From Candidatus Latescibacterota bacterium (GTDB taxonomy: Bacteria > Latescibacterota > UBA2968 > UBA8231): DNA of 64,000 nt. The notes below the pieces were generated by a model. That model saw only the letters and a list, made by a program, of their open reading frames with translations. It was not told the DNA's origin and made no database searches. The stretch covers positions 1,760,001 through 1,824,000 of the forward strand of contig OZ253462.1 of assembly GCA_965261395.1 (NCBI GenBank), read 5' to 3'. Shown piece by piece: positions 41,212 through 57,876 of this stretch. Made by a program: the position numbers and the translations under genes. Position 1 is the stretch's first letter. Every line of letters starts with the position of its first letter.

Positions 41212-43413
41212 CTAAGGCAGCAGGTCGCCGTTTGCAGGCTCATCCACGCGCAGCACTTCCAAAACGCCCTCGATGCGCTCGATTTGATCTATGGCCTGGC
41301 GCAGTTGCTCGCTGTCGGTGACGTCGATCCAGAAGTCCTGTTCGGCGATGTGGCCATCGGTGCGGGTAGTGGAGTCGCGGATGTTGGAGCCAGCGTCGCT
41401 GATCGCCCGCGAGATGTCCGCGAGCAAGTACGTGCGGTCCCAGCTACGGGTGCGTAGCTGAACGGTAACGGCCGGTTCGTCCTCTATTTTCCACTCGACC
41501 GCGAGCAGGCGGTCTGGCTCGGCGGAAATCCGGCCGATGTTGGGGCAGTTGGTGCGGTGGACCGTGACACCTCGGCCTCGGGTGACTAGGCCGACAATAT
41601 CGTCGCCCGGGATGGGACCACAGCACTTGCCGAAGAGGATCATCAGGTTTTGCATACCTTGGATGCGGATGTCTCTGCGGTCTTGGGGCCGGAGCGCGCG
41701 CCGCTTGGGTTCGGGCGGAGCTATTTTGCCGATGACCTTGCCGATTGACAGGTCCCCGTTGCCTAAGGCCGCGTAGAGGTGCTCGGCGTTGCTAAACCCG
41801 AACTCCTTGGCCACAGCACTGAGGTCGGGTGGGTCGCCGGCCTGATCGGGCTTCAGCCCCCTGTCGAGTGCCTCCTTGCCGAGGCGCACGTTGTGGTCGT
41901 ATTGCTCCTCCCGCAGCCAGCGGCGGATGGCTTGGCGGGCCTTGGCGGTCTTGACTTGATCCAGCCACGTGAGTCTGGGCTTTTGCTGCGACGCGGTGAC
42001 AATCTCCACGGTTTCGCCGCTGCTCAACGTCGCGCTCAGCGGCACGACTTGATCGTTTACTTTGGCGGTCGAACAGTGCAGCCCGATGTCGGTGTGGATG
42101 GCAAAGGCGAAGTCGATCGGTGTGGCCCCCTTGGGCAACTGGTGTAGGTCCCCTTTGGGGGTGAAGACGAAAATCTCGTCCTGAGACGCCAGCTCGGTCT
42201 TCAGGTTTTCCATGAATTCGACCGGGTCGGTGGCCTCTTGTTGCCAGTCCATGAGTTGGTGCAGCCAACTCATGTGTTGGTCTAAATCGCTGGGACCCGT
42301 GTCATTGGATTTGTAACGCCAGTGGGCGGCGATGCCGATTTCGGCTGTGTGGTGCATCTGCGCGGTGCGGATTTGCACTTCGACATATTGGCCTTTAGGA
42401 CCAATTACCGAAGTGTGCAGCGACTGGTACATATTGCTCTTGGGAGTCGATATATAGTCTTTGAAACGTCCGGGGATGGGGGTGTAAATTTGGTGGACCC
42501 AGCCGAGAATTTGATAGCATTCGCGCTCGGTGCTGGTGATGATGCGCATAGCCAGCAGGTCGTAGATTTCGTCAAAGGGCCTACCCCGCGCCTTCATCTT
42601 GTTGTAGATGCTGTAGAAGTTCTTGGCGCGGCTCGTAAACTCGGCTTTAATGCCATTGGCGTGCAGGCTCTCTTCGATCGGGACCTTAAATTCCTTTATA
42701 TAGTCTTCGCGCTCCCGGCGCGTCATGGCCACGTTTTCGCGCAGTTCTTGGTAAGTTTCGGGTTCGAGGAATTTGAGGCTTTGGTCCTCTAGCTGCCAGC
42801 GGATTCGGGCCAGCCCAAAGCGGTGGGCCAGCGGGGCGTACACTTCGAGCGTTTCGCTCGCGGTCCGCTTGCGGGATTCGGGACTTAGGTATTGGAGCGT
42901 GCGCATGTTGTGCAAGCGGTCGGACAGCTTGATGAGCATGACGCGGATGTCCTTGACCATGGAGAGCAGCATCTTGCGATAGGTCTCGGCTTGGCGCGCC
43001 TCGCGGCTCTCGTAGGTTATCTGATCAATTTTGGTAACCCCGGCGATCAGTTCGGCGATCTTGTCGCCAAATTGCTCGGCGACCTCCTCATACGTGGCCG
43101 GTGTATCTTCGATGACGTCGTGCAAAAGCCCGGCTGCAACCGTAGTGTGATTCAAGCCCAACTGGGCTAGGAGCCGAGCCACTTCGACGCAGTGGGCTAG
43201 GAACGGCTCGCCGGACTTGCGAATCTGGCCCTTGTGATGCTCCTTGGCGAAGTGGTAGGCGCGGTTGATCAGCGCGAAATCGGCTTGGTCGTTGCAGGAG
43301 GAGACCTCGATCAGCAGCATCGACAGCCGCAGTTCGTCGCCTCCCTGCTCGACGAGCTCGTCCAGGTAGGTATTCGGGAGGGCCGGAAGAGGCGTGGGAG
43401 TGGTTTCGACCAT
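41212..43413 (-). CDS. relA: Bifunctional (p)ppGpp synthetase/hydrolase (Rel/SpoT)
   Basis: HD motif LHDVIED, DRLHNMRTL, RFKDY, YQSLHT, plus TGS and ACT domains. Confidence 0.95.
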   Translation of the reverse strand: MVETTPTPLPALPNTYLDELVEQGGDELRLSMLLIEVSSCNDQADFALINRAYHFAKEHHKGQIRKSGEPFLAHCVEVARLLAQLGLNHTTVAAGLLHDVIEDTPATYEEVAEQFGDKIAELIAGVTKIDQITYESREARQAETYRKMLLSMVKDIRVMLIKLSDRLHNMRTLQYLSPESRKRTASETLEVYAPLAHRFGLARIRWQLEDQSLKFLEPETYQELRENVAMTRREREDYIKEFKVPIEESLHANGIKAEFTSRAKNFYSIYNKMKARGRPFDEIYDLLAMRIITSTERECYQILGWVHQIYTPIPGRFKDYISTPKSNMYQSLHTSVIGPKGQYVEVQIRTAQMHHTAEIGIAAHWRYKSNDTGPSDLDQHMSWLHQLMDWQQEATDPVEFMENLKTELASQDEIFVFTPKGDLHQLPKGATPIDFAFAIHTDIGLHCSTAKVNDQVVPLSATLSSGETVEIVTASQQKPRLTWLDQVKTAKARQAIRRWLREEQYDHNVRLGKEALDRGLKPDQAGDPPDLSAVAKEFGFSNAEHLYAALGNGDLSIGKVIGKIAPPEPKRRALRPQDRRDIRIQGMQNLMILFGKCCGPIPGDDIVGLVTRGRGVTVHRTNCPNIGRISAEPDRLLAVEWKIEDEPAVTVQLRTRSWDRTYLLADISRAISDAGSNIRDSTTRTDGHIAEQDFWIDVTDSEQLRQAIDQIERIEGVLEVLRVDEPANGDLLP

Positions 43414-43551
43414 GGGATCCTTCGTTCTCTATTTGCCCGTCAATATAAACAAGCATATAGAAAAAAAACAAGTACATACAAGCAGAAGTTCCTCGCTCGT
43501 TTGCACGCGCGGTAGAAGTTAAATTAAAATGGGAAGAGAACAGGACGCAGG

Positions 43552-43941
43552 ATGTGGCGGCTAAATACCGAAAACGCACCAGTGCTGACGCGAGCGGATA
43601 AAATCCTCGCGCTCGTCGTGGGCTTGAGTGCGATCGGGCTGGTACTCTACGGCCGCTACACGGCCGAAGCCGGCGGCGTGCTCATCGTCGAGTTGGCGGG
43701 GGCCACGCCTGCCACACATGCCCTCTCCAACTACGGAACTTTGTCGGTTGTAGGACCTTTGGGAGCGAGCGAGATTGAGATCGGCCCCAAGGGCGCGCGC
43801 GTGATTTTCGCGCCCTGCGTCCACAAGATCTGCATGCGGCAAGGCTGGATGCAGCGGGCGGGTGCCGTGACCGCGTGCGTGCCCAACGGCCTAGTGCTGA
43901 GGATCGCTGGAGCCGCGCCCCTAGACGCGATGATTCGCTGA
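43552..43941 (+). CDS. NusG domain II-like (DUF1312) membrane-anchored protein
   Basis: N-terminal TM; GPLG...I....RV..APC..KIC...GW......CVPN. Confidence 0.85.
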   Translation: MWRLNTENAPVLTRADKILALVVGLSAIGLVLYGRYTAEAGGVLIVELAGATPATHALSNYGTLSVVGPLGASEIEIGPKGARVIFAPCVHKICMRQGWMQRAGAVTACVPNGLVLRIAGAAPLDAMIR

Positions 43942-44462
43942 TGTTTGCGCGACCTAGAGACGTGGCCCGCTTGGGGCTTATGGCTAGTGCGGCCATTGTG
44001 CTCTTCGCCTTTGAATCGCTGGTGCCCAAACCCTTGCCCTGGATGAAGTTGGGGCTTGGCAATTTGCCGGTTTTGGTCGCACTGGTGAGCTTTGGCGGCC
44101 GCCCGGCGTTGGCGATTAGTGCCACCAAGCTCGCAGTCGGCGGCTTGCTCAGCGGGGGCTTTGCCGGTCCGGCCTTTGTCATCGGCGGTGGGGCTAGCTT
44201 GACGAGCTGGCTGGTCATGGTTGCGGTCCGCCGCATGGGAACGCGGCTTTTCAGCGTCGTGGGCCTGAGCATCTGGGGCGCGTTGGCGCACCAGCTCAGC
44301 CAGCTCGTTATCGCCGCTGGCTATATCGGCCATAGCGGTCTGTTCGCGCTTTTGCCGCTGGCCTTGTTTAGCGCTTTAGTGAGCGGGGGCGCGATCGGCC
44401 TGTTGGCTTGGTGGACCTTGGAGCAACTAGCGAAAATAGGCTGGTTGGACCAGGATCAGTAA
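43941..44462 (+). CDS. Gx transporter family protein (putative ECF S component)
   Basis: ES..P.P.PW.KLGL.N and S.VG.S..GA..H...QL motifs; start overlaps the upstream stop. Confidence 0.85.
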   Translation: MFARPRDVARLGLMASAAIVLFAFESLVPKPLPWMKLGLGNLPVLVALVSFGGRPALAISATKLAVGGLLSGGFAGPAFVIGGGASLTSWLVMVAVRRMGTRLFSVVGLSIWGALAHQLSQLVIAAGYIGHSGLFALLPLALFSALVSGGAIGLLAWWTLEQLAKIGWLDQDQ

Positions 44463-44495
44463 ATGTACATGCCTTTTCTCCTATAGATCGTATCA

Positions 44496-46460
44496 ATGCC
44501 GCAAGAGCCTACCTTTCAGGCCCCAGCACGAGCCGAGACGGTCTTCAGCGCCAAAGCGCTAGTGGCGGGCACGCTAGGATCGCTGTGCATCGCCGTGGGA
44601 GCACCGTACGGCAACACGGTCATCCGCGGCTCCTACATGTCGATTGATTTCAGCGCGGCGGGTGCCCTATTCCTCTTCTTCGTACTGACGGGCTTGTTCA
44701 ATGCCTTGCTGACTCGCCTCGCCGCTCCTGTGGCCCTCGGGCGCGGCGAGCTCATCGTCGCGTACATTATGATGCTGACGGCCTCGGCCATCCCCACGAT
44801 GGGCCTCAGCGAGTACTGGCTAACGATCATCACCGGCGCCCAGTACTACGCCACCCCGGAAAACGAGTGGGCCTTGCACATCCTGCCGCACCTTCCCGAG
44901 TGGATCGCGCCGCAGGATCCCGAGTCGATCAAGTGGTTTTACGAAGGAGCACCACGCACCGCTGGGGTGCCTTGGGCCGTCTGGGTCGGCCCGCTGTGCT
45001 ATTGGGCCGTGCTAATCGTGGCCCTGTACTTGGTTATGATCTCGTCGATGGTCATTCTGCGCCGCCAGTGGGTGGAGCGGGAGCGGCTGGTTTACCCGCT
45101 GGTGCAAGTGCCCTTGGCTATGGTGGAGAGCGGAGGCCGCGGACAGGCGCTAGGTCCTTTCTTCAAAAACCCGATCATGTGGATCGGCTTTGCCCTGCCC
45201 GTGTTCGTCAGCAGCCTCAACGCCCTACACGCGTACTTCAACTTCATTCCCGCCATCCAGCTCGTCTCCTCTGTGCCGATCCTGCGCAACACCACCAGCC
45301 TGATCTTCCGCCTGAGCTTTCCCATGGTGGGGTTCGCCTATCTAATCAACCTCGACATCGCCTTCAGCTTGTGGTTTTTCAACACCATTGCCAAGCTGAT
45401 CCGAGGGGGGCTGGGGATTTTAGGGGTCGGCAGCACCGAAAAGCTGGGCATCTACGGTGCTCCTAGCGAGCCAATTCTCGCCCACCAAGGGCAGGGGGCG
45501 ATGATCGTCTTAGTGCTTTTCGGCCTATGGGTCGGCCGCGAGCACCTGCGTGATGTGCTGCGCAAGGCCTTCAAGGGCGACGACCGCATCAACGACAGCG
45601 GCGAGATGCTCTCCTATCGAGCGGCGGTCTTAACCTGGCTCGCCGGAGTCGCGGTGATGACCATCTGGCTGTGGCAGTCCGGCTTGCCGCTGTGGGCGGC
45701 CTTTTTGACCCTGATGCTGGCCATCCTTATCTTCGTTGGCCTAACCCGGGTGGTAGTAGAAGGAGGCGTGGCCGCGGCAGTCGGGCCGATGATTTCTTCG
45801 TCGGCCTTGGTCTCGGCCGTAGGCTCTTCGGCGCTCGGCCCGGCGGGCATGGTGGGCCTCGCGTACACCTATGTGTGGGCGGCGGATATCCGCACGTTTG
45901 TCATGGCTTCCTGCGCGCACGGCCTTAAATTGGGCGAGGAACTGGGGCCGCGGCTGCGCCCGCTTTTTTGGTACATGCTGCTGGCGATTTTTGTCAGCAT
46001 TGTCGGTTCGGTCGCAGCGATTTTGTACCTCGCCTACGAATACGGCGGCATCAATCTCAACGGGTGGTTTTTTGGTGGTGGAACTCGCGCCCCTTTTGAT
46101 TATATTACCACCAAGTTAAGCGCGCCCACCAAGCCGAACATCGATGGCTGGATTCACACTTTTGTCGGCGGGGGCATCATGGCCCTGCTCATGTGGGCGC
46201 GCCAGCGGCTCTTGTGGTGGCCGCTGCATCCCATTGGATACCCCATTGGTGCCGTATGGCTGATGGATCAGTTGTGGTTTAGCATTGCCCTTGCTTGGCT
46301 CTTAAAGCTATTGGCGATGAAATACGGCGGTCCCAGCCTTTTTCGCCGGGCGCGTCCCTTCTTTTTAGGCCTGATCATAGGCCAGTTTTTCATCGCCGGG
46401 CTTTGGTTGATTATCGACTTTTTTATGGGCATGACCGACAATGTGGTCTTCTGGATCTGA
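44496..46460 (+). CDS. DUF6785/DUF6784-like polytopic membrane protein (OPT-like)
   Basis: Many TM segments; RRQW.E.ERL.YPL, WWPLHPIGY and K..G......R.RPFFLGL..G. Confidence 0.8.
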   Translation: MPQEPTFQAPARAETVFSAKALVAGTLGSLCIAVGAPYGNTVIRGSYMSIDFSAAGALFLFFVLTGLFNALLTRLAAPVALGRGELIVAYIMMLTASAIPTMGLSEYWLTIITGAQYYATPENEWALHILPHLPEWIAPQDPESIKWFYEGAPRTAGVPWAVWVGPLCYWAVLIVALYLVMISSMVILRRQWVERERLVYPLVQVPLAMVESGGRGQALGPFFKNPIMWIGFALPVFVSSLNALHAYFNFIPAIQLVSSVPILRNTTSLIFRLSFPMVGFAYLINLDIAFSLWFFNTIAKLIRGGLGILGVGSTEKLGIYGAPSEPILAHQGQGAMIVLVLFGLWVGREHLRDVLRKAFKGDDRINDSGEMLSYRAAVLTWLAGVAVMTIWLWQSGLPLWAAFLTLMLAILIFVGLTRVVVEGGVAAAVGPMISSSALVSAVGSSALGPAGMVGLAYTYVWAADIRTFVMASCAHGLKLGEELGPRLRPLFWYMLLAIFVSIVGSVAAILYLAYEYGGINLNGWFFGGGTRAPFDYITTKLSAPTKPNIDGWIHTFVGGGIMALLMWARQRLLWWPLHPIGYPIGAVWLMDQLWFSIALAWLLKLLAMKYGGPSLFRRARPFFLGLIIGQFFIAGLWLIIDFFMGMTDNVVFWI

Positions 46461-46477
46461 GAAAGGCACTTACAATT

Positions 46478-49400
46478 ATGCCTAAGTTCGCGGTGAGGTG
46501 GATGGCCTTTGGCTGGGTTCTGGCCGGCGCAACACTAGCCCAAGCCGAGGTCGATTTTGCCGAGTTGGCGCGCACGACCCCAGTCGAGCGCGTGCAGCAG
46601 ACGATGGACACCTTTGCCAGCTTGGGATCTAGAATCGCCGGCTACCCAGGTGCCGACCAAGCGGCCCAGATCGTGCAGGAGCGCTTCCGCGCAATCGGCC
46701 TCGACGACATCACAATCCACGAATACGATGTATCGATTCCTGTCGATAAGGGCGGATTCCTGCGGGTCGTCGAAAGTGGCGAACAAGTGCCAATTCACGG
46801 CCTCTGGCCCAATCTAGTCAAAACCTCGACGCTGCCCGAAGGCGGGGTGACCGGGCGCTTGATCGACGCCGGCGCGGGCGAGTACGCGGATATGGACGGC
46901 AAACAAGTCGAAGGAGCCGTGGCCCTGATGGACTTCAATTCGGGCGACGCCTGGCTCAATGCCGCCTATCTCGGAGCGCAGGCCATCGTCTTTATCGAGC
47001 CAGATTCCACCGTGTACTTGGAGGGCGAAAAGAAATTCCTCTCCATGCCGCTCGACCTGCCGAGGTTCTGGATCAATCGCCAAGCCGGTCAGCACTTGCG
47101 CCGCCAGTTGGCCGCCGAGGGCGAGCAGACGCTCCACCTAGAGTACCGCATGGATTGGGAGCGACGTCCCGCTTGGAATATCCTCGGCACGATCCCCGGA
47201 TACGATCCCTTGATGAAAGAGGACGTAATCGTGCTGGAGGCGTACTACGACGCCATGTCGGTCGTGCCGGCCCTCGCCCCGGGTGCCGAGCAGGCCTCCA
47301 GCATTACTGCGCTGTTGGAACTAGCGCGCTATTTCCGCGCAAACCCGCCGGCGCGCACGGTCGTCTTCCTCGCCACTTCGGCCCACCACTTGGGCTTGCG
47401 CGGGGTCGATGATTTCATCCAGCGCTATTTGCGCAAAGAGGATCCCTTTATCGAACACATGCTGGTGCGGCGGGTCGTCGATGCCGCACTCGCGCGGAAC
47501 ATGATCGCCCAAGACGGCATCCACTACGCCATCGGCGAGGAGGAGTTTACCGGCAAGGAAGCCCTCGTGCGAAGCGTTGCCGAAGGGCGCACCGACTTGG
47601 CCGCGCACATTGCCGCCGCCGCCCTCACCGAAGGGCTGCTGGGCCAAGAGGAAGACGCATCCAGCAGTTCATGGGGCTTGTGGAAGAAGACAATAGAGGG
47701 CATTAAGGGGCTGCTGAGTCGAGGAGAAGGCGCACTGCACCTCGCTGGCAAGCAATTCGAAAACCGCCACGAACTGGTTGACCAGCTAGACTCGGACGAC
47801 GACTTGCGCCTCGCCCTCTACAAGCGCTGGGTTGATCCCAAAGTCGATTCGCTCGCGGTCAAGCTCTTCATTAGCCTCGACCTTTCGTCGCAGACCGACG
47901 AGCTCGGGGTCTGGAATAGCAATACCAGCTTTTACTACAAGCGCTACTTCGCGCCCTTCGGCAAAAACTTCATGGCTTATGCGCGCAAGATCAGCCGCGA
48001 GCTGAACTACCAGCGGCGCGACGTGCTGGTCAATGGCATCAGTCCCGAAGGCGGGATGAGCTGGCAGACCTTTGTGCCGGGCGAAATATCGGTCAACAGC
48101 GAATTGGTGTTGGCGACCGGTACGCCGGCATTGGCCTTTGTCACCGTCAACGACGCGCGCTTCCTCGTCGATACGCCCTTAGACCGAGCTGAGCACGTCA
48201 ACCACGCCAATCTCGCCAAACAGATCCGGGTGCTCGCCGGCATGTTCGAGATGGCCTTTGAAGACCCAGAGCTTTTCCCGGATTTCAAGATGCGCCTGCG
48301 CGACAATCTGCGCTCGCTGCGCGGCCGGACTATGGTCTTTCCGCGCCGCAGCATCATTCCCGACCTACCGCGCGCAGACGCAGTGGCCGTCGTGCGCAAC
48401 GGCAAGAAAAAGTCGTACAAAGGCGTGCGCGGAGAATACTACGAAGTCGTCGATGATAAGGGGGCCTTTTACGTAAATCGGGTGCGGGTCAACAACGTGC
48501 AGATCGAGGGCTACTACATGGACCCGATCACCGGGCGCATTACCTATGCCCCGGACCGCGGCGTGCAAGGCGACGAGATCTACCCGATGAAGGTCTCCAT
48601 GGACTGGCGCGACAAGCAGTGGATGGTCATCCTCTTCCCCTGCGTGCCCTACAATTTCTTCGACATCGTCGATCCGCGCTATCTCACCAAACTATCCAAC
48701 GTGCAGGTCTTTGACGAGACGAACGGCGCGCCCGTGGAGTACGGTTACACCATCGGCGAAGGTCCCTCGGCCCAAAACGAGCCAGTTGGAGTGCTCTTCG
48801 CGCGGCCTGGCTCGCGCATAAAGATGGGTTTTGGCGCTGGCTTACTCGGTTTCCGCTCGCTATTGCTCAACGCCACCAGCGCCACCGACAAAGACAAGGC
48901 CGAGGGCGAGGGCTTTGAGATCCGCCCCGGCACCTCTTTTGCCCGCACGACCTTCCAAGCCGCCCAAGACATGTGGAATCTCGACGAGTCGCGGATGCGC
49001 GAGTTGCGGAGCTTTGCGATTGAGAACCAGCGTCTCAACGACCTCCACTACCGGGCCAAGACCGAGTTAGATCAAGCCGCGACGGCGGGTGCCGAGCAGC
49101 GTTGGCGCGACTTTGTGCGTCACACGCGCGCGGGCTTTGGGCTGGAGTCGCGCGCCTATCCAGACGTCAAATCCACCCAAAACGACGTCGTTCAGGGCAT
49201 TATCTTCTTTATGGCCCTCGTCATTCCCTGCGCCTTTTTTACCGAGCGACTCATTTTTACCGCCGCCACGATCCGCAATCAGATCATCGGATTCGTCGGG
49301 GTATTTCTAGTGATCTGGATCGTGCTGTGGATGGTGCATCCGGCCTTTCAGCTTTCCAATCCCTTCGTCATTCTGCTGGCCTTCATCATCATCGCGCTGG

Positions 49401-51304
49401 CCGTTCTCGTGATGTCGATCATCTCCGGCCGCTTCAACGAGCAGATGAAGAAGCTGCGCACCGAGGTGGCCGTGATCCACGACACGGACGTCAGCCGCTC
49501 TTCGGCTTCGGTGACGGCTTTCCAGCTCGGGATTTCCAATATGAAGCGGCGCAAGACGCGCACGGTTCTCACCTTTACCACGCTGTTGCTGCTGACCTTT
49601 ACGGTGCTCTCCTTCACTTCCATCCGCACGGGCCTGCGGTTCAACCAAATCAACCGCGACAATGAGGGTCTCTACGAGGGCATCCTAATCCGCAGTAAGG
49701 CGTGGAATCCGATGGAGGATTCAGTCCTCGAATACGCCCGCAGCAATTTCGGTGATCGGGCCGCAGTCGCGCCGCGCAGTTGGTATAGCAACAAGGCCAA
49801 GGCGCACATCAAAATAAAACACGGCGACAAGGCCCATAACGCGCTCGGCGTCCTCGGATTGACCCCGGAGGAAACCGAGGTCACCGGGCTGCACCAAGCC
49901 CTAGTCGCCGGGCGGTGGTTTGAGCCGGGCGAGGGCAAGGTCTGCATCCTGCCCATCGACATGGTCAAAGAGGCCCATCTCGACATCGACCTCGCCGATG
50001 TCGGCCAAGCGCAGGTCCGCATTTTCGGCGACTTGTTCACGGTCGTTGGCGTCCTCGACTCCAAGCGGATGAAGGACCTCAAAGACCTCGACGATGAAAT
50101 CCTGACGCCAGCCGACTTCGCCGTCACCGGCGGCCAAGCCGTGCAGGAAATCGCCGAGGAAGAAAAGCGCGAGAAGCAGGGCTTGGAGGACGCCAAGGTC
50201 GTCATCAAGCCCTTTGTCCATCTAGAACCGGCCAACATCCTAATCGCGCCCTACCACACGCTGCGCAACGTCGGCAGCGGCAACCCCCTGCAATCCGTGG
50301 CCGTGCGCTTTCCCGAGGGCAGCGACGTGCGCGGCGAGGTCGAGGAGTTCCTCTCGCGCCTCGCGGTGACGCTGTTCGCCGGAGTCAAGGAGCCCGGCGA
50401 TGAATACATCAAGGTGTCGATCTATTCATCGCTGGGGATGACCTCCTTTTCCGGGATGAGCAACTTGTTCATACCCATGCTGATCGCCTCGCTAATCGTG
50501 CTCAACACCATGATGGGCAGCGTGTACGAGCGCTTCCGCGAAATCGGCATCTATTCTTCGGTGGGCCTAGCCCCCGGCCATATCTCTTGGCTCTTTATCG
50601 CCGAGAGCTGCGTCTATTCGGTGCTGGGCGTCGTCGCCGGTTATCTCAGCGGCCAAGTAGTCGCCAAAGTGCTCATCGAGTTCGACCTGCTGGGTGGCTT
50701 CACGCTCAACTACTCCTCAGTGGCCGCGGTGCTCTCCTGTATGCTGGTGATGGCCGTGGTCATGCTCTCGACGATCTATCCAGCGCGCAAGGCTTCGCAG
50801 ATGGCCGTGCCGGACGTGACCCGCAAGTGGAAGCTGCCGCCGCCCGACGGCGACCAATGGGATTTCGAGTTCCCTTTTACGGTCAGCGGCCACGAGGTCT
50901 TGGGCTTGAGCGTATTCCTCATTGGCTACTTCGACTCCTACAGCGAGGAGTCCATCGGCACCTTCTACACCGACGGTGCCCAGCTAAGCCGCGAAGAAAC
51001 GCCCAACGGCGAAGGGTACCTCATCGACATGAATATCTGGCTGGCTCCTTTCGATTTGGGCGTCAGCCAACACGTCACCGTGCAGGCTATGCCAGAGGCC
51101 GAGCACAACATTTACGCAGTCGGCCTGCAAATCAAGCGACTCAGCGGCGAGGACGCCTCGTGGCGGAGGGTCAACCAGCGCTTTATGAACGTCATCCGCA
51201 AACAGTTCCTCATCTGGCGCACGGTGGATGCCGAGGCCAAAGAAGGCTACCGCCAACAGGGTGCGGAAATTTTGCAAGGACTGCGCAGCGAAGTGTCGGC
51301 GTAA
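46478..51304 (+). CDS. Large fusion: signal peptide, PA/M28-peptidase-like domain, Ig-like region, TM block, and MacB/FtsX-like permease with C-terminal domain
   Basis: SR.AGYPG, NI.G.IPG, YYD..S.VP.LAPGAE; N..RRK.RT.LT; V.ER.REIGI...VG......LF..E. Confidence 0.82.
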   Translation: MPKFAVRWMAFGWVLAGATLAQAEVDFAELARTTPVERVQQTMDTFASLGSRIAGYPGADQAAQIVQERFRAIGLDDITIHEYDVSIPVDKGGFLRVVESGEQVPIHGLWPNLVKTSTLPEGGVTGRLIDAGAGEYADMDGKQVEGAVALMDFNSGDAWLNAAYLGAQAIVFIEPDSTVYLEGEKKFLSMPLDLPRFWINRQAGQHLRRQLAAEGEQTLHLEYRMDWERRPAWNILGTIPGYDPLMKEDVIVLEAYYDAMSVVPALAPGAEQASSITALLELARYFRANPPARTVVFLATSAHHLGLRGVDDFIQRYLRKEDPFIEHMLVRRVVDAALARNMIAQDGIHYAIGEEEFTGKEALVRSVAEGRTDLAAHIAAAALTEGLLGQEEDASSSSWGLWKKTIEGIKGLLSRGEGALHLAGKQFENRHELVDQLDSDDDLRLALYKRWVDPKVDSLAVKLFISLDLSSQTDELGVWNSNTSFYYKRYFAPFGKNFMAYARKISRELNYQRRDVLVNGISPEGGMSWQTFVPGEISVNSELVLATGTPALAFVTVNDARFLVDTPLDRAEHVNHANLAKQIRVLAGMFEMAFEDPELFPDFKMRLRDNLRSLRGRTMVFPRRSIIPDLPRADAVAVVRNGKKKSYKGVRGEYYEVVDDKGAFYVNRVRVNNVQIEGYYMDPITGRITYAPDRGVQGDEIYPMKVSMDWRDKQWMVILFPCVPYNFFDIVDPRYLTKLSNVQVFDETNGAPVEYGYTIGEGPSAQNEPVGVLFARPGSRIKMGFGAGLLGFRSLLLNATSATDKDKAEGEGFEIRPGTSFARTTFQAAQDMWNLDESRMRELRSFAIENQRLNDLHYRAKTELDQAATAGAEQRWRDFVRHTRAGFGLESRAYPDVKSTQNDVVQGIIFFMALVIPCAFFTERLIFTAATIRNQIIGFVGVFLVIWIVLWMVHPAFQLSNPFVILLAFIIIALAVLVMSIISGRFNEQMKKLRTEVAVIHDTDVSRSSASVTAFQLGISNMKRRKTRTVLTFTTLLLLTFTVLSFTSIRTGLRFNQINRDNEGLYEGILIRSKAWNPMEDSVLEYARSNFGDRAAVAPRSWYSNKAKAHIKIKHGDKAHNALGVLGLTPEETEVTGLHQALVAGRWFEPGEGKVCILPIDMVKEAHLDIDLADVGQAQVRIFGDLFTVVGVLDSKRMKDLKDLDDEILTPADFAVTGGQAVQEIAEEEKREKQGLEDAKVVIKPFVHLEPANILIAPYHTLRNVGSGNPLQSVAVRFPEGSDVRGEVEEFLSRLAVTLFAGVKEPGDEYIKVSIYSSLGMTSFSGMSNLFIPMLIASLIVLNTMMGSVYERFREIGIYSSVGLAPGHISWLFIAESCVYSVLGVVAGYLSGQVVAKVLIEFDLLGGFTLNYSSVAAVLSCMLVMAVVMLSTIYPARKASQMAVPDVTRKWKLPPPDGDQWDFEFPFTVSGHEVLGLSVFLIGYFDSYSEESIGTFYTDGAQLSREETPNGEGYLIDMNIWLAPFDLGVSQHVTVQAMPEAEHNIYAVGLQIKRLSGEDASWRRVNQRFMNVIRKQFLIWRTVDAEAKEGYRQQGAEILQGLRSEVSA

Positions 51305-51317
51305 GGGAGGATAGCGA

Positions 51318-53738
51318 GTGCTCGGAAGCAAAAATAGAAACCCGAACCAAGAGATCGAAGAATATCGGGATCTAATGCAGGTCCCGGACCGCTTCGAGAA
51401 CGGCTTTACGATCAAGGCCATCCTCGGCGTGTTCTTCGTTGCCTTTATCATGGTGCCGGGCAACATGTACTTGAGCCTGATGATCGGCGGCTCGCTAGGG
51501 GCGGCGGCCGAGTGGGTGACGATCATCCTCTTCGCCGAAATCACCAAGCGCTCCTTTTCCACCCTCCGGCGCCAAGAAGTCTACGTGCTGTTCTACGTGG
51601 CCGCCTCGCTGATTGCCGCTGAGACCGGTGCCTTTGAGGGCTTGCTCTACAACCAGTACTTGGTGCAATCGCCAGCGGCCAAGCAGTTTGGCATCGCCAA
51701 GCTGATCCCCACCTGGGTGGCACCGCCAGTCGACTCCCAAGCCATCCTCGAGCGGACCTTTCTGCACGCGGATTGGGCGATGCCGATCGTACTCTTGGTC
51801 TTGGGGATGATCATCTGGCGCGTCAACTGGTTTACCATGTCGTACGCGCTCTTCCGGCTCAACTCCGACTACGAGCGCCTGCCCTTTCCCTTCGCGCCCG
51901 TAAACGCCCAAGGCGCTACGGCACTGGCCGAGACTACCCAAGGACTTGAGACTTGGCGCTGGCGGGTATTCTCGGCGGGGGCAATGATCGGCTTGGTTTT
52001 TGGCACGATCTACGTGGCCCTGCCGGCGATTACCGGCGCACTGCTGACCGAGCCGATCCAACTCATACCCATTCCCTTTGTTGACTTCACGCAAGTCACC
52101 GGCAACTTCATCCCGGCAACTCCGCTGGGATTTACCGCGCACTTGGGGCCGATCTTCGTCGGTTTAGTAGTGCCGTTCTGGGGCGTGGTTGGCACCTTTA
52201 TCGGCATCGTCGTCGCCGCCATTGCCAACCCGCTGCTCTATACTTGGACGCCTTCGTGGCGCGAGGAGCCTTACCTGAACCTGTGGCGGCAAGGCATGGG
52301 CTCGATAGATACCTTCTTCGTCAACAACGTTGATTTCTGGATGAGCTTTGGCATCGGCACCACCATCGCTATCGCCATCATCGGCATCTATCAGGTAGTT
52401 CAGAGCGTGCGTGGAGCCAGGGCCAACACCGGGGAGGAAGGCGAGCCCAAGCGCAGTTTCGCCACCCCCGAGGGCCGCGGCGATTTTCCCATCTGGGTGG
52501 CGCTAGCCCTGTACGCCTTGGCCACGGCCGGCCTGATCGGCATCGCCGCTTGGCTGCTGCCGGGCATTGCCCAATTTATATGGTTTTTCCTCTTTTTTGG
52601 TTTCGTATTCACGCCCTTTCAGTCCTTTGTCAACGCTCGCCTAGTCGGGATGGTAGGGCAGACGGTGGACATCCCCTTCGTGCGCGAGGCGACGATTATT
52701 CTCTCTGGGTATCGCGGCGTTGACATCTGGTTCATTCCGTTTCCCTTGGGCAACTACGGTGCCCAGACCCAGAAGTTCCGCGAGATCGAATTAACCGGCA
52801 CCCAGTTTACCAGCATCATCCGCGCCGAGATTTTCATGGTGCCAATCGTGCTCTTTACCAGTTTTCTCTACGGCTCCTATATCTGGAAACTGGCACCGAT
52901 CCCATCGGCATCCTATCCCTATGCCCAGCTATTCTGGCGGCTGCGGGCCTATCAGCAATGCCTCTTTATTACCGGCACCATGCGCAGCGAACTCGCCATA
53001 GACAACGATCGGGCGGGATGGACCCCGGCTAACCTGATCGAGAACGAGTGGTGGTACTGGCGGGTGCGGTTGGTGGATCAGGAGTGGCTGGACTCCAATG
53101 GCAAGCTCGGTCAAATCGGCCCGTGGATGCCGACCCAAGTTTTCTACTCGTACTTCGACCAAGGGTCACCCGACATCGTCGCCGAACGCTACCTGCGCGA
53201 CGAGCAGCTAGCCGAAGAGGACATTGTCGCGGGCTTGCCGGCAATTGCGCCGCTAGGGCCGGCCATGGACACCGTCATCCGCGACCCCCGCCCAACCCTC
53301 GAAGTGAAGGTCGGGCGAGCCGTGCCCGCGGGATGGTCCTTCTACTTCGAGGTCGATGCCGATCCGCTCTTTACCAGTTCCTGGATCCAGCGTTCCACCG
53401 ACGAGCCTTGGCTGTATAAAGCGCTCAAGCCAGAGGTCATGGCCTTCGGAGCCGGCTTCGGGCTGGTGAGTTTCATTCTGCTCTCCATCCTCGGGCTGCC
53501 GATCCTGTTGATCTTTGGCTTCGTGCGCTCGCTGACGGTCCTGCCGCATCTTGTGGTGACCGAGATCGTCGGCGCGCTCTTGGCTCGCTACTACTTCTGG
53601 AACAAGTACGGGCGACAGGAGTGGCGACAGTTTGCCCCGATTCTGGCGGTGGGCTTCTCCTGCGGCATGGCATTGATGGGGATGGCGGCGGTGGGGGTCG
53701 CCCTGATCCAGAAATCGGTCTCCGTGCTGATCTTCTAG
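51318..53738 (+). CDS. OPT-like 'peptide transporter' membrane protein with a soluble insert
   Basis: GFTIKA..G..F, EWVT.ILF.E, ERLPFP.AP and IPS..YP motifs; RBS AAGGGAGG. Confidence 0.78.
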   Translation: MLGSKNRNPNQEIEEYRDLMQVPDRFENGFTIKAILGVFFVAFIMVPGNMYLSLMIGGSLGAAAEWVTIILFAEITKRSFSTLRRQEVYVLFYVAASLIAAETGAFEGLLYNQYLVQSPAAKQFGIAKLIPTWVAPPVDSQAILERTFLHADWAMPIVLLVLGMIIWRVNWFTMSYALFRLNSDYERLPFPFAPVNAQGATALAETTQGLETWRWRVFSAGAMIGLVFGTIYVALPAITGALLTEPIQLIPIPFVDFTQVTGNFIPATPLGFTAHLGPIFVGLVVPFWGVVGTFIGIVVAAIANPLLYTWTPSWREEPYLNLWRQGMGSIDTFFVNNVDFWMSFGIGTTIAIAIIGIYQVVQSVRGARANTGEEGEPKRSFATPEGRGDFPIWVALALYALATAGLIGIAAWLLPGIAQFIWFFLFFGFVFTPFQSFVNARLVGMVGQTVDIPFVREATIILSGYRGVDIWFIPFPLGNYGAQTQKFREIELTGTQFTSIIRAEIFMVPIVLFTSFLYGSYIWKLAPIPSASYPYAQLFWRLRAYQQCLFITGTMRSELAIDNDRAGWTPANLIENEWWYWRVRLVDQEWLDSNGKLGQIGPWMPTQVFYSYFDQGSPDIVAERYLRDEQLAEEDIVAGLPAIAPLGPAMDTVIRDPRPTLEVKVGRAVPAGWSFYFEVDADPLFTSSWIQRSTDEPWLYKALKPEVMAFGAGFGLVSFILLSILGLPILLIFGFVRSLTVLPHLVVTEIVGALLARYYFWNKYGRQEWRQFAPILAVGFSCGMALMGMAAVGVALIQKSVSVLIF

Positions 53739-53739
53739 C

Positions 53740-54732
53740 ATGAGCGATCGGGTGGATTTTGCTTGGCAAGGACTGCGGTTGTCCGTGCCTGACGACTGGA
53801 ATCTCGGCCGAGTTGACGGGGATTTTGAAAAGGGCTATGCCCGCCTCGACGACGCCGAAATCGTGCGCGCCGAGATCGAATGGCGGCGTCTCAAAGGCCG
53901 CGGCGAGGCCCTGCGCCTGACCGAGCTGGTAGATCGCTACTTGGCCAACTTGCAAAAGAAGGCCCAAAAGGTCGATGCCCCCTTTGAGGTCCAGCGCCGC
54001 GCCCGATTCCTCAAAAACAAGAAATTCCTCGAAGGCCGCGACTACGAGGTCTTCATCTGGGAGGCCGACTTTCGCGCATACAATCTAGCGCTCGCCTTGA
54101 AGTCCGGGCGGGTAGTGCTCCTGAGAGTGCTGGCTAGGCTAGACGAGTCCCTGCCCGAGCAAGCCGAGGCCGTGTTCAGCTCGCTCGTCGACCAAGAAGG
54201 CGAGGCCGCCTACCTGTGGAGCGTGTACGGCTTGCGGTTTTTCGCGCCCAGCGACCTCAAGCTACAAAGCCATGCCCTCAAGTCGGGCCACATCCAGCTA
54301 GAGTTTACCCTCGGCAAACAGGTTCTGCGGGTGCATCGGTTGAGCATGGCCCGAATCATGCTCAAAGAAGCGCACATTCAAGACTGGTATCCGGTTTTTT
54401 TTAAGAAGCAATTGCGCGACTTCGTGGTGGACATTGCTCCAGAGGCCGTGCAGGAACACGAGGGCATTCGCGTCGAGGGGCGGCCGCGCAGCCGCTGGCG
54501 TCAGTTGATCCGTCCCCTGCCCTTTATGAACCCGAGGCCGCGCCTGTATCTGCGAGGGCGCGTCTGGCGCGATGCTAGCCTCGACAAGATCTTCATCGTC
54601 GAGCACCTCTACCGCAAGAAAGACACAGCAGACGAGCTAGTCTCCAAGGTAGTAGATGGGCATTTTATCGAAAGACAAGGGACCCAAGCTGAGCCGGGCC
54701 GCCATGCTGGCGTCGCGGCCAACACGCAATGA
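53740..54732 (+). CDS. Hypothetical cytoplasmic protein with two PsbP/DcrB-like halves
   Basis: Internal repeat FAWQGLRLSVPDDW / WSVYGLRFFAPSDL; starts 1 bp after the upstream stop. Confidence 0.7.
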   Translation: MSDRVDFAWQGLRLSVPDDWNLGRVDGDFEKGYARLDDAEIVRAEIEWRRLKGRGEALRLTELVDRYLANLQKKAQKVDAPFEVQRRARFLKNKKFLEGRDYEVFIWEADFRAYNLALALKSGRVVLLRVLARLDESLPEQAEAVFSSLVDQEGEAAYLWSVYGLRFFAPSDLKLQSHALKSGHIQLEFTLGKQVLRVHRLSMARIMLKEAHIQDWYPVFFKKQLRDFVVDIAPEAVQEHEGIRVEGRPRSRWRQLIRPLPFMNPRPRLYLRGRVWRDASLDKIFIVEHLYRKKDTADELVSKVVDGHFIERQGTQAEPGRHAGVAANTQ

Positions 54733-55087
54733 GTCCCTGAGTTGGGAGAACAACGACAACGGCGAGGTTCAGGTCTCAATAAAGCGCCAAGAGACCTGGA
54801 AGGTGAGGCTGCTGTCCAAGTTTTTCTACATACCCAGGCAGCGCAAAATCACCCTCGACGAGGTCGGCAGCGAGGTCTGGCGGATGTGCAACGGCCGCAG
54901 TTCGGTCGGCGAGATGATAGAAGAGCTCAGCGACAAGTACCAGCTCAACCGCAAGGAGGCCGAGGTCTCTCTGCTCCAATATTTGAAAACTCTCGGGCAG
55001 AAGCGCTTTATCGGCTTTGTGCTAGCAGGCGACGAGAGGCCGCCCGATCGCGGCACGGCCAGCGGCAAAAAATGGCAAAAGAAATAG
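54656..55087 (+). CDS. PqqD family protein (RiPP recognition element)
   Basis: LDEVGSEVW..C.G..SV.E....L...Y......AE.....YL..L.....I pattern. Confidence 0.85.
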   Translation: MGILSKDKGPKLSRAAMLASRPTRNESLSWENNDNGEVQVSIKRQETWKVRLLSKFFYIPRQRKITLDEVGSEVWRMCNGRSSVGEMIEELSDKYQLNRKEAEVSLLQYLKTLGQKRFIGFVLAGDERPPDRGTASGKKWQKK

Positions 55088-55692
55088 AGAGGGGCGAGCA
55101 ATTAGCTCGTCCCTCTTTTAGTCTGCACCCGCACCGAGTCGCACGCTTCCTCTCGCACTTGCTCAATCCCGCGTTGTTGGCGCTGTTGGTCTTTGGCGTC
55201 CAAGCGCACGTGCTGGGCGACTGGCGCGGTGGCGCGGTGGCCATTGGCACCTTCTCTGTTGTACCTGGGTTGCTACTCTGGCACTTGGTGCGCTCGGGCT
55301 ATCTCGATAAAGCCTATACAGACGACCGCAACAAACGCGGCACCCTGCTCTTGTTGGGCGCTTGTTGCTACGCTTTGGGGGGAGCGGCCCTTTACGGGAT
55401 CAGTGTCCCGCCCCTGATGCTGGTCACAGCCGCGTCCTGTGTCATCAACACGCTCTTGGTCTGGTGGATCAATCGCTCCTATAAGATCAGCATTCACGCG
55501 GCTGGCGTCGGAGGGGCGACCTACATATTGTTGATCAGCGTCGGCAGTGCGGCGTGGCCCTTTTTGCTAAGTTGGCCGGCCGTCGCCTGGGCGCGGCTTT
55601 ACTTGCGGGCGCATACTCCCATGCAACTCGGCGCGGGCGGTGCGCTGGGCGTTGGGAGTACGGCACTACTGTACAATGCTTTCATGTTGTGA
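55072..55692 (+). CDS. PAP2-superfamily-like membrane protein
   Basis: KISIHAAG and WARLYLRAHT..Q...G motifs; about 6 TM segments; start uncertain. Confidence 0.7.
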   Translation: MAKEIERGEQLARPSFSLHPHRVARFLSHLLNPALLALLVFGVQAHVLGDWRGGAVAIGTFSVVPGLLLWHLVRSGYLDKAYTDDRNKRGTLLLLGACCYALGGAALYGISVPPLMLVTAASCVINTLLVWWINRSYKISIHAAGVGGATYILLISVGSAAWPFLLSWPAVAWARLYLRAHTPMQLGAGGALGVGSTALLYNAFML

Positions 55693-55701
55693 GCACGGCA
55701 C

Positions 55702-57876
55702 ATGAACCAATCGTATAAGGGCTTTATAGATCGCCTGACCTACCACAACCCGGAAAACGGCTATACCATTGCGCGCTTAGTCGTCGAGGGCCAGCGGGAG
55801 CGGATCGCCATCGTGGGGGCTATTGCCTCCATCCAAGAGGGCGAGAGCATCGAAGTCGAAGGCGTGTGGACCAATCATCCCCAATACGGCAAACAGCTCA
55901 AGGTGGAGCGCTATAAGGCCGTTTATCCCTCGACCCTCGAGGGGATGCAAAAGTACCTCGGGTCCGGTTTGATCAAAGGCGTCGGGCCGAGGTCGGCCAA
56001 GCGCATCGTCGATCACTTTGGCGCGGAAACGCTCGACATCATCGACGCGGATCCCCACCGGCTAGCGGAGGTGCCCAAGCTGGGCAAAAAGAGAGTCGAG
56101 CTGATTGCCGAGGCTTGGGACGAGCAGCGGCACATCAAGGACGTGATGGTCTTTTTGCAGTCGCACGGGATTACCACCGGCTACGCGGTGAAAATTTTCA
56201 AGACCTACGGCCAAGAGGCCATTCACAAGGTGCGCAGCGATCCCTATCGCCTAGAGCGCGATGTGGATGGGATCGGCTTCCGCATCGCCGACCGCATTGC
56301 CCAGCGCTTGGGCCTAGACCACGATGCACCCGAGCGCGTGCAGGCCGGCATCCGCTACCTGCTCTCCGAAGCGGCCGACGAAGGCCACGTGTATCTGCCG
56401 GCCGTCGAAATGATGGAGCGGGCCGTCGAAATTTTGGACATCAACGCCGAACTGCTGCCGCAGGCATTAGAGGCCCTGCGCGCCAGTGACGGAGCAGTCA
56501 CCGAAGATCTGCGATACTATCTGCCGCCGCTTCACCGCTCCGAAGTGGGTGCAGCATCGTCGCTAAAGCGGCTTTTGCGAGCGCCGGCCGAAGCGTTGGC
56601 CGTGCCCGCAGAAGCGGAGGACGGGCTGGAATTGGCCCCGGCGCAAATACAGGCCGTGGAACTGGTCGCCACCAGCAAGGTGCTGGTGCTAACCGGCGGG
56701 CCGGGCACCGGCAAGACTACGGTCACGCGGCGCATTTTGCACCTCTTGGAGGAAGGTGGCCTCAAAGTCGGGCTGTGTTCGCCTACGGGCCGCGCCGCCA
56801 AGCGACTGAGCGAGGCCAGCGGGCGCGAGGCCAAGACCATTCATCGGCTGCTGGGATTTCAGCCGGGTGAGCGGCAATTCAAAAAGGGCTACGACGACCG
56901 CCTCGAACTCGATGCGCTGATCGTCGACGAGGCTTCGATGATCGACGTGGTGCTGATGAACGCGCTCCTGCGCTCCCTGCCCGACCACGCTCGGCTGGTG
57001 CTAGTCGGCGACATCGACCAGTTGCCCTCGGTGGGGCCGGGCAACGTGCTCCGCGACATCATCGACTCTGCAAAAGTGCCGGTGGTGCGCCTGACGCAGA
57101 TTTTTCGCCAAGCCGAAAAAAGCCACATCATCCGCAACGCGCACCGCATCAACAGTGGTGAGATGCCCATCGTCGAGAACCATGCGGACGCGGATTTCTA
57201 CTTCATCCAAGAAGGCGACCCAGAGCGGGTAGTCGAGCTGGTGGAAGAGTTGTGCGCCACGCGGCTGCCCAGCTATCGGGAGTGGGATCGGCGCGCCGAC
57301 ATCCAAGTGCTTGCGCCCATGTACCGCGGCGAGACCGGCGCGCTCAACCTCAACCAGCGGCTGCAACAGCGCCTCAACCCGCACGGCCAAGTGCACCGCC
57401 ATCGCGGGGCTGAGTTCCGGGTCGGCGACAAGGTCATGCAGGTCAAAAACAACTACGACAAGGGCGTTTTTAACGGCGACATCGGCACGGTCGAGCGGCT
57501 CGACGCAGAAAAGCAGGTCCTCTACGTGCGCTTTGACTACACCTTGGAATACGATCAAGTCGATCTCGACCAGCTCACCCTCGCCTACGCCATCAGCATC
57601 CACCGCTCTCAGGGGTCGGAATTTCCCGTGGTGGTGCTGCCGCTAACGACGCAGCACTACGTGATGCTCCAGCGCAACCTGCTCTACACGGCGATTACCC
57701 GCGCCAAGCAAATGGTTGTCATCGTCGGCACCCCCAAGGCCCTCAAGCTGGCCATTGCCAACGACAAGGTCGCCCAGCGCTACACCACGCTCAAAGAGCG
57801 GCTGCGCGGCGAGGTCGGCGCGGTGATGGAAGCAGGACAAGCCATCCCGCTGGAACCGACACTGCCGAGCGATTGA
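55702..57876 (+). CDS. recD2: ATP-dependent RecD-like DNA helicase
   Basis: KGVG HhH, TGGPGTGKT, PTGRAAKR, DEASM, GD..QLPSVG, H.SQGSEF and LYTA.TRA motifs. Confidence 0.95.
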   Translation: MNQSYKGFIDRLTYHNPENGYTIARLVVEGQRERIAIVGAIASIQEGESIEVEGVWTNHPQYGKQLKVERYKAVYPSTLEGMQKYLGSGLIKGVGPRSAKRIVDHFGAETLDIIDADPHRLAEVPKLGKKRVELIAEAWDEQRHIKDVMVFLQSHGITTGYAVKIFKTYGQEAIHKVRSDPYRLERDVDGIGFRIADRIAQRLGLDHDAPERVQAGIRYLLSEAADEGHVYLPAVEMMERAVEILDINAELLPQALEALRASDGAVTEDLRYYLPPLHRSEVGAASSLKRLLRAPAEALAVPAEAEDGLELAPAQIQAVELVATSKVLVLTGGPGTGKTTVTRRILHLLEEGGLKVGLCSPTGRAAKRLSEASGREAKTIHRLLGFQPGERQFKKGYDDRLELDALIVDEASMIDVVLMNALLRSLPDHARLVLVGDIDQLPSVGPGNVLRDIIDSAKVPVVRLTQIFRQAEKSHIIRNAHRINSGEMPIVENHADADFYFIQEGDPERVVELVEELCATRLPSYREWDRRADIQVLAPMYRGETGALNLNQRLQQRLNPHGQVHRHRGAEFRVGDKVMQVKNNYDKGVFNGDIGTVERLDAEKQVLYVRFDYTLEYDQVDLDQLTLAYAISIHRSQGSEFPVVVLPLTTQHYVMLQRNLLYTAITRAKQMVVIVGTPKALKLAIANDKVAQRYTTLKERLRGEVGAVMEAGQAIPLEPTLPSD

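Follow-up and report, generated by a model that had tools for sequence, protein, structure and literature searches.

Type VII ATP-binding cassette (ABC) systems such as MacB, LolCDE and FtsEX combine an FtsX-type permease with an ATPase, and those characterised so far are all outward-acting or mechanotransducers. FtsEX–EnvC joins its FtsX scaffold to a domain of peptidase fold that is catalytically inactive. The characterised members of the oligopeptide transporter (OPT) family are importers. Here we analyse a 64,000-nucleotide stretch of a Latescibacterota genome (the window; G000:C1:1760001-1824000), in which a single cluster of genes brings together relatives of FtsX permeases, of peptidases and of OPT transporters. 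The parts come from known superfamilies, and their combination is without description in the literature that we searched, in line with the preliminary description of the locus, made from its sequence, as a membrane system of undescribed function. Searches for DUF6785, DUF6784 (PF20581/PF20580), FtsX together with peptidase M28, or PqqD together with FtsX found no literature, and none of the publications retrieved for Latescibacteria, FtsX and oligopeptide transporters looked relevant, as judged by titles and abstract openings.

We propose, at what we regard as an even chance, that five adjacent genes of this cluster code for the membrane subunits and adaptors of a type VII (MacB/LolCDE/FtsEX-like) ABC machine that is conserved. 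The five genes are:

g3, 44496-46460, + strand: DUF6785 plus DUF6784 protein, 654 amino acids
g4, 46478-51304, + strand: M28-like, MacB_PCD and FtsX permease, 1608 amino acids
g5, 51318-53738, + strand: OPT-fold membrane protein, 806 amino acids
g6, 53740-54732, + strand: tandem PsbP/Mog1/DcrB-like protein, 330 amino acids
g7, 54656-55087, + strand: PqqD-type protein, resembling RRE domains (recognition elements of ribosomally synthesised and post-translationally modified peptides, RiPPs), 143 amino acids

A giant FtsX permease with a probable pseudo-peptidase head

The largest protein of the cluster, g4, matches the Pfam families FtsX (56.8 bits, cut-off 25.5) and MacB_PCD (33.9 bits, cut-off 27), and in the PDB it aligns with the MacB chain 5lil (E 1.8e-9) as well as with YtrF and LolC/LolF chains. 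A simple Kyte–Doolittle scan, which is not a topology predictor, gives the following order from the N to the C terminus: a signal or anchor helix, about 880 extra-membrane residues, three transmembrane (TM) segments at 904-982, a MacB-type unit and a cytoplasmic tail. The ectodomain consists of an M28/PA-like part followed by about 550 residues of periplasmic sequence without a family assignment. In the MacB-type unit, a TM segment at 1031-1049 is followed by a loop of about 270 residues that holds MacB_PCD and by three TM segments in 1324-1433, so that the four-segment layout of MacB/FtsX proteins (TM1, periplasmic domain, TM2-4) is present. The unit is complete, including the N-terminal basic helix preceding the TM segment, which in MacB contacts the ATPase. 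In the cytoplasmic tail of about 175 residues, many positions are unchanged in family members from two phyla. Thus g4 shares with MacB, LolCDE and FtsEX an FtsX domain, the MacB periplasmic core domain and the pattern of TM segments, and differs from them in its length of 1608 residues, its second, partial TM bundle and the extra ectodomain.

The head of this ectodomain matches Peptidase_M28 in Pfam (36.2 bits, cut-off 21.3), with the match covering only profile positions 1-79 of 193. Its similarity to YwaD, a PA-domain M28 aminopeptidase, reaches E 3.5e-9 with the single sequence and 2e-19 with the family profile, and the same profile finds the non-catalytic M28-like proteins nicalin (E 7e-7), transferrin receptor (E 3e-5) and, weakly, nicastrin (E 0.24). 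HxD, GAxD and EE are the zinc-ligand and catalytic motifs of M28 enzymes. In the alignment of YwaD with g4, HYD becomes YYD, GANDN becomes GAEQ- and GAEELG becomes SAHHLG; across ten g4-family members, the HxD position reads YYD in eight and HYD in two, so that the first histidine is kept in two of the ten, and the EE position reads H[HF] in all ten. Within the part that can be aligned, to which the comparison is confined because the C-terminal ligands are not alignable, these replacements support the view that the head is a pseudo-peptidase, and they bear out the earlier suggestion that it is inactive. An active M28 aminopeptidase was considered and rejected, the co-catalytic zinc and catalytic glutamate motifs being replaced in the alignable part. 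With nicastrin, nicalin and the transferrin receptor, g4 shares an M28-like head with replaced motifs that sits on a membrane complex and is likely to act as a receptor; those proteins are found in eukaryotes, in complexes without relation to this one, whereas the head of g4 is part of the same chain as an ABC-type permease.

OPT-like and PsbP-like partner proteins

Both g3 and g5 had been described beforehand as OPT-like. In Pfam, g3 is a polytopic membrane protein of DUF6785 (E 4e-126) and DUF6784 (E 8e-31) that lacks an OPT match even at E<=1, and g5 has no Pfam match at all. The C terminus of g5 scores 21.8 bits against NCBIfam OPT_sfam, far under the cut-off of 128.35, and Pfam OPT is weakly matched by 3 of 22 g5-family members (best E 6.2e-4); neither g3 nor g5 reaches the family thresholds of PF03169 or TIGR00728. 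Neither g3 nor g5, nor the profile of either family, gave a meaningful match among PDB sequences, and for g3 the ESM Atlas offered weak leads only (0.77-0.79), pointing towards clusters labelled 'peptide transporter' and OPT. At the level of fold the picture is different. An AlphaFold2 (AF2) model of g5 built from 22 sequences (predicted local distance difference test (pLDDT) 69.9, predicted template-modelling score (pTM) 0.71) retrieves barley YS1 in Foldseek, as 7wst (E 4e-9, probability 1.00) and 7wsr (E 1.4e-8), with TM-scores of 0.67-0.68 by target length; the next match lies at only E 0.05, and nothing else is convincing. The g5 model thus has the OPT/YSL fold. For g3, the evidence is its homology to g5: the two families align by hhalign with a probability of 93.9% (E 1.6e-7) over about 210 N-terminal columns. 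Together, the YS1 match and the g3–g5 homology uphold the reading of two OPT-like proteins as to fold, while at the sequence thresholds of the OPT family it does not stand. Besides these scores, g5 differs from OPT/YSL transporters in a beta-rich insert of about 150 residues (residues ~555-705) that varies between paralogues, in the PDZ domain carried by one paralogue and in its almost constant position beside a giant FtsX protein; transport by g5 is putative, and a heteromeric OPT channel, as suggested earlier, may be formed by the two proteins.

The AF2 model of g6 (42 sequences, pLDDT 85.7) shows two domains of the PsbP/Mog1/DcrB-like fold in tandem. By VIA-align, residues 2-152 superimpose on CyanoP (2xb3; Z 12.6, root-mean-square deviation (rmsd) 3.0 Å, 137 aligned) and residues 182-312 on SciW (6xrr; Z 10.8, rmsd 3.0 Å, 113 aligned), an Eag-type chaperone that binds transmembrane helices in the cytoplasm. 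Foldseek adds the type VI secretion system (T6SS) immunity proteins Tli4/TplEi, which g6 resembles in its tandem of two such domains, and PsbP at E 6e-5 to 4e-3. These fold matches agree with the earlier PsbP-like assignment. Unlike other proteins of this fold, g6 has neither a sequence-family match (Pfam, NCBIfam) nor a T6SS context, and a T6SS immunity locus was rejected because it rested on the fold resemblance of g6 alone. Hydropathy finds no signal peptide, TM segment or other hydrophobic segment, so g6 is probably cytoplasmic. A g6 profile collects 1390 cluster representatives at E<=1e-3, with named members from Poribacteria, Armatimonadota and WS1. In this wider family, cysteine and histidine positions with the consensus CxxC, WHC and CH are kept in at least 90% of sequences and possibly form a metal site; the g6 of the window departs from the family in lacking them.

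The remaining protein, g7, scores above the cut-off of Pfam PqqD (45.8 bits against 23.4), confirming its identification as a stand-alone PqqD-type domain. It falls short of the PqqD equivalog TIGR03859 (29.9 against a cut-off of 46) and far below the cut-offs of the NCBIfam models of RiPP chaperones (GeoRSP, lasso). Known PqqD and RRE proteins differ from g7 in their partners: a PqqE-like radical-SAM enzyme is missing here, and the conserved partners of g7 are g6 and a short FtsX protein with an ABC ATPase. A PQQ-biosynthesis or RiPP cluster was considered and rejected. Prediction of a g6–g7 complex (alignments A1 and A7) gave a score of 0.27 with the mark at 0.32, which is evidence neither way.

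Two conserved modules and a candidate motor

We followed the cluster through 168 Latescibacterota genomes and 5 Armatimonadota genomes. The close relatives of the window are metagenome-assembled Latescibacterota, part of them labelled Gemmatimonadetes, and 28 of their 28 loci keep the order g5-g6-g7, so the arrangement is not due to chance. Two of the close relatives (L019, L020) carry at least 6.4 kb of extra sequence between g4 and g5, where the others that have both genes show a distance of tens of bases at most; this could be a mobile element. At four loci of the same family, protein identity is 71-73% for g4 and 66-72% for g5, as compared with 58-64% for the flanking RelA and 56-61% for the flanking RecD2. 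The DUF6785 gene g3 is less constant: of these four loci, three (L043-L045) lack it at the orthologous position, as does L027. In a set of 15 loci beyond the close relatives, each centred on the best g5 match, g4 adjoins g5 in all 15 and a DUF6785 gene is found in 8; g6-g7 follow in 4, which are the four loci of the window's own family just described. When 16 loci from other families are viewed from g6, 12 of them have g7 next to it (g7 was not detected in L057, L058, L064 and L065), and g4-g5 lie directly upstream in 3 (L059, L062 and L063, of families f8, f11 and f12). From this separate and joined occurrence we distinguish two modules, g4-g5(-g3) and g6-g7. The conserved core comprises g4-g5, to which DUF6785 may or may not be added, and the g6-g7 pair; the five genes do not always travel together.

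Both modules reach across the phylum. A g5 match was found in 154 of 168 genomes and the g6 family in 149, in single copy throughout. In family f10, g5, g6 and a short FtsX protein (introduced below) are each found in none of 13 genomes; among five f10 genomes that are 93-97% complete, none has DUF6785 and no g4 orthologue was found, generic FtsX matches at E >= 1e-7 being all that was seen. The membrane module is also multiplied within genomes. G000 has seven g4-like genes, five g5-like genes and one g6, with DUF6785 genes beside most of the g4-like genes. In one case (paralogue D, G000:C1:5207158-5213532, - strand) the two are joined in a 2124-residue open reading frame (ORF) that aligns with g4 to about residue 1470 and carries a complete DUF6785 protein at 1479-2124, providing a fusion link between g4 and DUF6785. 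Sulfatase and CreD genes lie beside paralogue D; YbjN/CesT-like and PspA genes come after paralogue B, whose g5 is the one with the PDZ domain; a peptidyl-prolyl isomerase (PPIase) gene is found near paralogue F. In one Atlas cluster of g4-like proteins, 19% of members carry LysM.

The window itself holds no ORF of at least 120 residues with both a Walker A motif and LSGGQ, by regular-expression search, and the same motif pair is absent within 14 kb of all seven g4 paralogues of G000. The candidate motor comes from other genomes. Two deeper-branching loci (L062, L063) have the order DUF6785, a TPR protein, g4, g5, g6, g7, a 228-residue FtsX-domain protein and an ABC ATPase, before unrelated housekeeping genes. 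An orthologous pair is present in G000 at C1:3040659-3042148, with identities of 59% for the short FtsX protein and 73% for the ATPase. The ATPase scores best on the models of LolD, MacB, DarD, YbbA and FtsE, each below its cut-off, and in this it resembles the ATPases of MacB, LolCDE and FtsEX; the arrangement differs from theirs in that the ATPase is unfused, is not adjacent to the cluster in this genome and lies beside a separate FtsX protein of 233 residues that is almost without a periplasmic domain. Within the phylum, the short FtsX protein is single-copy (148 of 168 genomes at E<=1e-30) and has the same phyletic pattern as g5 and g6. Gene coordinates put it no more than about 1.2 kb from g6 in six genomes (G008, G024, G025, G026, G029 and G030) and about 13 kb away in two (G009, G010).

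Armatimonadota supply two further arrangements. In two of the five genomes (L076, L079), a short FtsX gene and an ABC ATPase gene (69-72% identity to the ATPase of G000) accompany g4-like and g5-like genes; in the other three (L081-L083), a PqqD-like gene (35-36% to g7) is found with a short FtsX gene and an ABC ATPase gene (67%). Overall, ATPase identity between the two phyla is 67-73%. These three gene orders in two phyla place g4-g5, the short FtsX/ABC pair, g7 and g6 in one neighbourhood network, which the links between g3 and g4 extend to seven components. We therefore regard the short FtsX protein and the LolD/MacB-type ATPase as the candidate motor, probably encoded in trans here. The earlier statement that the system lacks an ATPase is true of the window, by motif search; for the system as a whole it is probably wrong, as the pair adjoins g7 or g4-g5 elsewhere.

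Each of the five Armatimonadota genomes has 2-6 g5-family and 10-37 DUF6785 matches, as against DUF6785 in 0 of 14 control genomes. Adjacency of g4 and g5 is seen in 5 of 6 Armatimonadota g5 loci; L074, L075 and L077 carry further g4-g5(-DUF6785) sets without the ATPase, and an M19 dipeptidase gene lies near the cluster in L076. Loci with g6-like genes were found in this phylum with a single protein, P0275, as query. By ORF order, an FtsW/RodA gene adjoins the g6-like gene in 4 of 6 of them, confirmed by Pfam in 2. Several other arrangements were seen. In L029-L033, the g6-like gene stands between an upstream FtsW/RodA (SEDS) gene and an overlapping downstream gene for a protein of 570-650 residues; two of these proteins were scanned with Pfam, which found TPR in one and nothing in the other, and those of 593 and 650 residues have no similarity to g7. 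Directly upstream of PqqD-sFtsX-ABC (sFtsX, short FtsX) lies a gene for a protein of about 820 residues (L081:6687-9182, L082:6740-9181, L083:11203-13344), with a CarboxypepD_reg domain in both cases scanned (L081, L082); it was rejected as a g5-like protein (hhalign probability 0.06%). L080 (G170:C125:60000-79999) has three tandem DUF6785 genes with neither g4 nor g5 nearby.

Metatranscriptome contigs from one study cover g3 to g7. Record 25 of X8 bridges g3/g4, record 5 of X10 (49444-55164) bridges g4/g5, g5/g6 and g6/g7 and extends into g8, the next gene downstream, and record 28 of X8 spans 52641-55038. Contig depth falls after g7, and the two genes upstream of g3 (g1 and g2) are thinly covered; depth cannot rank genes, and nothing is drawn from it.

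The proposed machine and its alternatives

In the proposed type VII machine, g4 would be a mechanotransducing permease whose dead M28/PA head serves as a periplasmic receptor for peptide or protein termini. The OPT-fold protein g5, with g3 where present, would form the membrane conduit; the LolD/MacB-type ATPase and the short FtsX half-permease, supplied in trans from C1:3040659-3042148, would be the motor; and g7 and g6 would act as cytoplasmic adaptors on that motor. ATP hydrolysis would move the ectodomain of g4, which would capture extracytoplasmic peptides or unfolded protein ends and pass them to the OPT-fold subunit. Here we infer physical assembly, use of this particular ATPase, the class of substrate and the direction of transport. 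A peptide or protein substrate is suggested by the M28/PA head, the PDZ domain in the g5 of paralogue B, the OPT fold and the PqqD-type domain, and the M19 dipeptidase beside the Armatimonadota cluster leans the same way. As to direction, we lean slightly to import, at somewhat less than an even chance; this draws on the expansion of paralogues and on what is known of OPT proteins. Export or envelope biogenesis, to which we give about one chance in three, draws on the behaviour of type VII systems, strong conservation, the FtsW/RodA, PspA, PPIase and TPR neighbours, and LysM. A more specific form of the proposal, which we consider improbable though worth stating, is a hybrid-energised transporter: a MacB-type mechanotransducer, made up of the giant FtsX protein, the short FtsX protein and the ATPase, would gate or load an OPT-fold channel under the control of the PqqD/PsbP-like pair from the cytoplasm. 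Capture by the dead-peptidase receptor, driven by ATP, would thereby be linked to transit through the fold of a secondary transporter. Such a transporter might be a substrate-diversified platform for uptake or export, with seven paralogues in this genome and tens of DUF6785 genes per genome in Armatimonadota; it would be widespread in these two phyla and probably occur as well in Poribacteria and further phyla that have received little study.

Several observations weigh against the proposed machine. The link to the ATPase rests on gene neighbourhood in other genomes: in G000 the pair lies 1.23 Mb from the cluster, behind glycosyltransferase genes, and most Latescibacterota families have no short FtsX gene in the vicinity of g6. 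The Armatimonadota relatives of g6 stand beside FtsW/RodA and not beside g4-g5. Family f10 is a single clade, so the joint absence of the components may be one event. The confidence of the g5 model is middling, and the g6 of the window and its closest relatives have other residues at the conserved cysteine and histidine positions of the wider family. Because RNA libraries may hold DNA and a contig is not a single transcript, the metatranscriptome is consistent with expression and goes no further. To our knowledge, no type VII ABC system imports anything, which speaks against the import form of the proposal, and the PspA, YbjN/CesT-like and PPIase genes near paralogues, like LysM in the g4-like cluster, point to envelope upkeep over nutrition.

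The last of these points lead to the strongest competitor, a machine for envelope biogenesis or quality control, which we judge unlikely but well within consideration. Here, as in LolCDE or FtsEX–EnvC, ATP would power movements of the dead-peptidase head of g4 by which some part of the envelope (for example a lipoprotein, a protein of the surface or an enzyme acting on peptidoglycan) is extracted, passed on or activated, with the OPT-fold proteins as exporter or flippase and g6 and g7 as chaperones of a cytoplasmic substrate or tail. This would be in keeping with the outward action or mechanotransduction of the characterised type VII systems, and the stronger conservation of g4 and g5 (71-73% and 66-72%, against 56-64% for RelA and RecD2) fits a housekeeping function. 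The neighbours speak for it too: FtsW/RodA beside g6 relatives in 4 of 6 Armatimonadota loci, PspA and the YbjN/CesT-like gene after paralogue B, the PPIase near paralogue F and the TPR protein between DUF6785 and g4 in L062 and L063; so do LysM in g4-like proteins and the resemblance of the C-terminal domain of g6 to Eag/SciW chaperones, which hold transmembrane helices. Yet seven g4 paralogues in G000 and 10-37 DUF6785 matches per Armatimonadota genome look like substrate-diversified uptake, the characterised OPT members are importers, and the cluster has no conserved substrate gene.

A looser association is less probable still: g4-g5(-g3) would carry out ATPase-independent, proton-driven peptide uptake with g4 as a mere receptor, and g6-g7 with the short FtsX/ABC pair would be a separate system that is often nearby. 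The lack of an ABC ATPase motif pair around the seven g4 paralogues agrees with this, as do the 13 loci, out of 16 from other families, where g6-g7 stand apart from g4-g5 and the contrast between single-copy g6 and multi-copy g4 and g5. Against it stand the orders g4-g5-g6-g7-sFtsX-ABC, sFtsX-ABC-g4-g5 and PqqD-sFtsX-ABC, which link the two sets in two phyla, their joint absence in f10, and the complete MacB-type unit of g4 with the basic helix at which MacB contacts its ATPase. Export of a RiPP-type product, in which g7 would recognise a leader peptide and the FtsX and OPT proteins would export the modified peptide, is very improbable. It would account for the PqqD-type domain of g7, for the RiPP chaperones (GeoRSP, lasso) being its weak best NCBIfam matches and for the likeness of the ATPase to that of the darobactin exporter, DarD, below the cut-off; those chaperone matches are all far under their cut-offs, however, and occurrence as a single copy in almost all genomes of a phylum is not what natural-product clusters look like. 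In addition, no ORF with a radical-SAM motif was seen in the window and no modifying enzyme among the cluster genes and the neighbours scanned with Pfam, in a search that left out short precursor ORFs.

Flanking genes and the rest of the window

The five genes sit in a densely packed cluster of eight in one orientation (43552-55692), followed by a ninth of the same orientation that the preliminary description did not include. The other four genes are:

g1, 43552-43941, + strand: NusG_II (Pfam)
g2, 43941-44462, + strand: Hpre_diP_synt_I ('Gx transporter') (Pfam), ATG start at 43941
g8, 55072-55692, + strand: membrane protein, weakly PAP2-like, 206 amino acids
g9, 55702-57876, + strand: RecD2 (890 bits)

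The RelA/SpoT gene lies upstream on the opposite strand. Junctions are short throughout, with a 1-nt overlap of g1 and g2 (TGATG), gaps of 33 nt (g2-g3), 17 nt (g3-g4), 13 nt (g4-g5), 1 nt (g5-g6) and 9 nt (g8-RecD2), and overlaps of 77 nt (g6/g7) and 16 nt (g7/g8). All coordinates in the preliminary description were confirmed, as were its domain calls for g3, g4 and g7 by Pfam matches. Its view of eight genes as one unit fared less well: g1, g2, g8 and g9 accompany the core only in the window's own family, and DUF6785 is missing from several loci. The g1-g2 pair is upstream of g4 or g3 throughout that family and was not found upstream in the deeper-lineage loci L062/L063; g8 is separated from g7 by about 1.7 kb of other sequence in L023, L024 and L027 and is not beside g7 in 16 loci of other families. 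These four genes are local neighbours outside the conserved core. The PAP2 match of g8 (E 0.0014, 18.9 bits) is under the Pfam cut-off of 27.2.

By regular-expression search, no ORF of at least 120 residues across the 64-kb window contains CxxxCxxC. With neither this motif nor the Walker A/LSGGQ pair present, no radical-SAM enzyme or ABC ATPase is seen in the window; for the radical-SAM enzyme, this agrees with what had been noted before. A scan of 43000-58500 for promoters and terminators was uninformative: promoter-like sites numbered 2, where 3.9 were expected, and terminator-like sites 21, where 15.2 +/- 3.5 were expected. Convergent with RecD2, a 1569-residue ORF with a Walker A motif (57891-62600, - strand) looks like a large helicase-type protein.

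Discussion

The system is nearly universal in Latescibacterota and heavily expanded in Armatimonadota. OPT-fold partners and PqqD/PsbP-like adaptors occur in no type VII system described in the literature that we searched. If the assembly is real, it would extend type VII ABC mechanotransmission to OPT-fold partners. It would also give a function to two Pfam domains of unknown function and to two families without a Pfam model (g5 and g6), provide a bacterial example of a dead M28 ectodomain acting as a receptor, comparable to nicastrin and nicalin, and place the RRE/PqqD fold at work outside RiPP biosynthesis.

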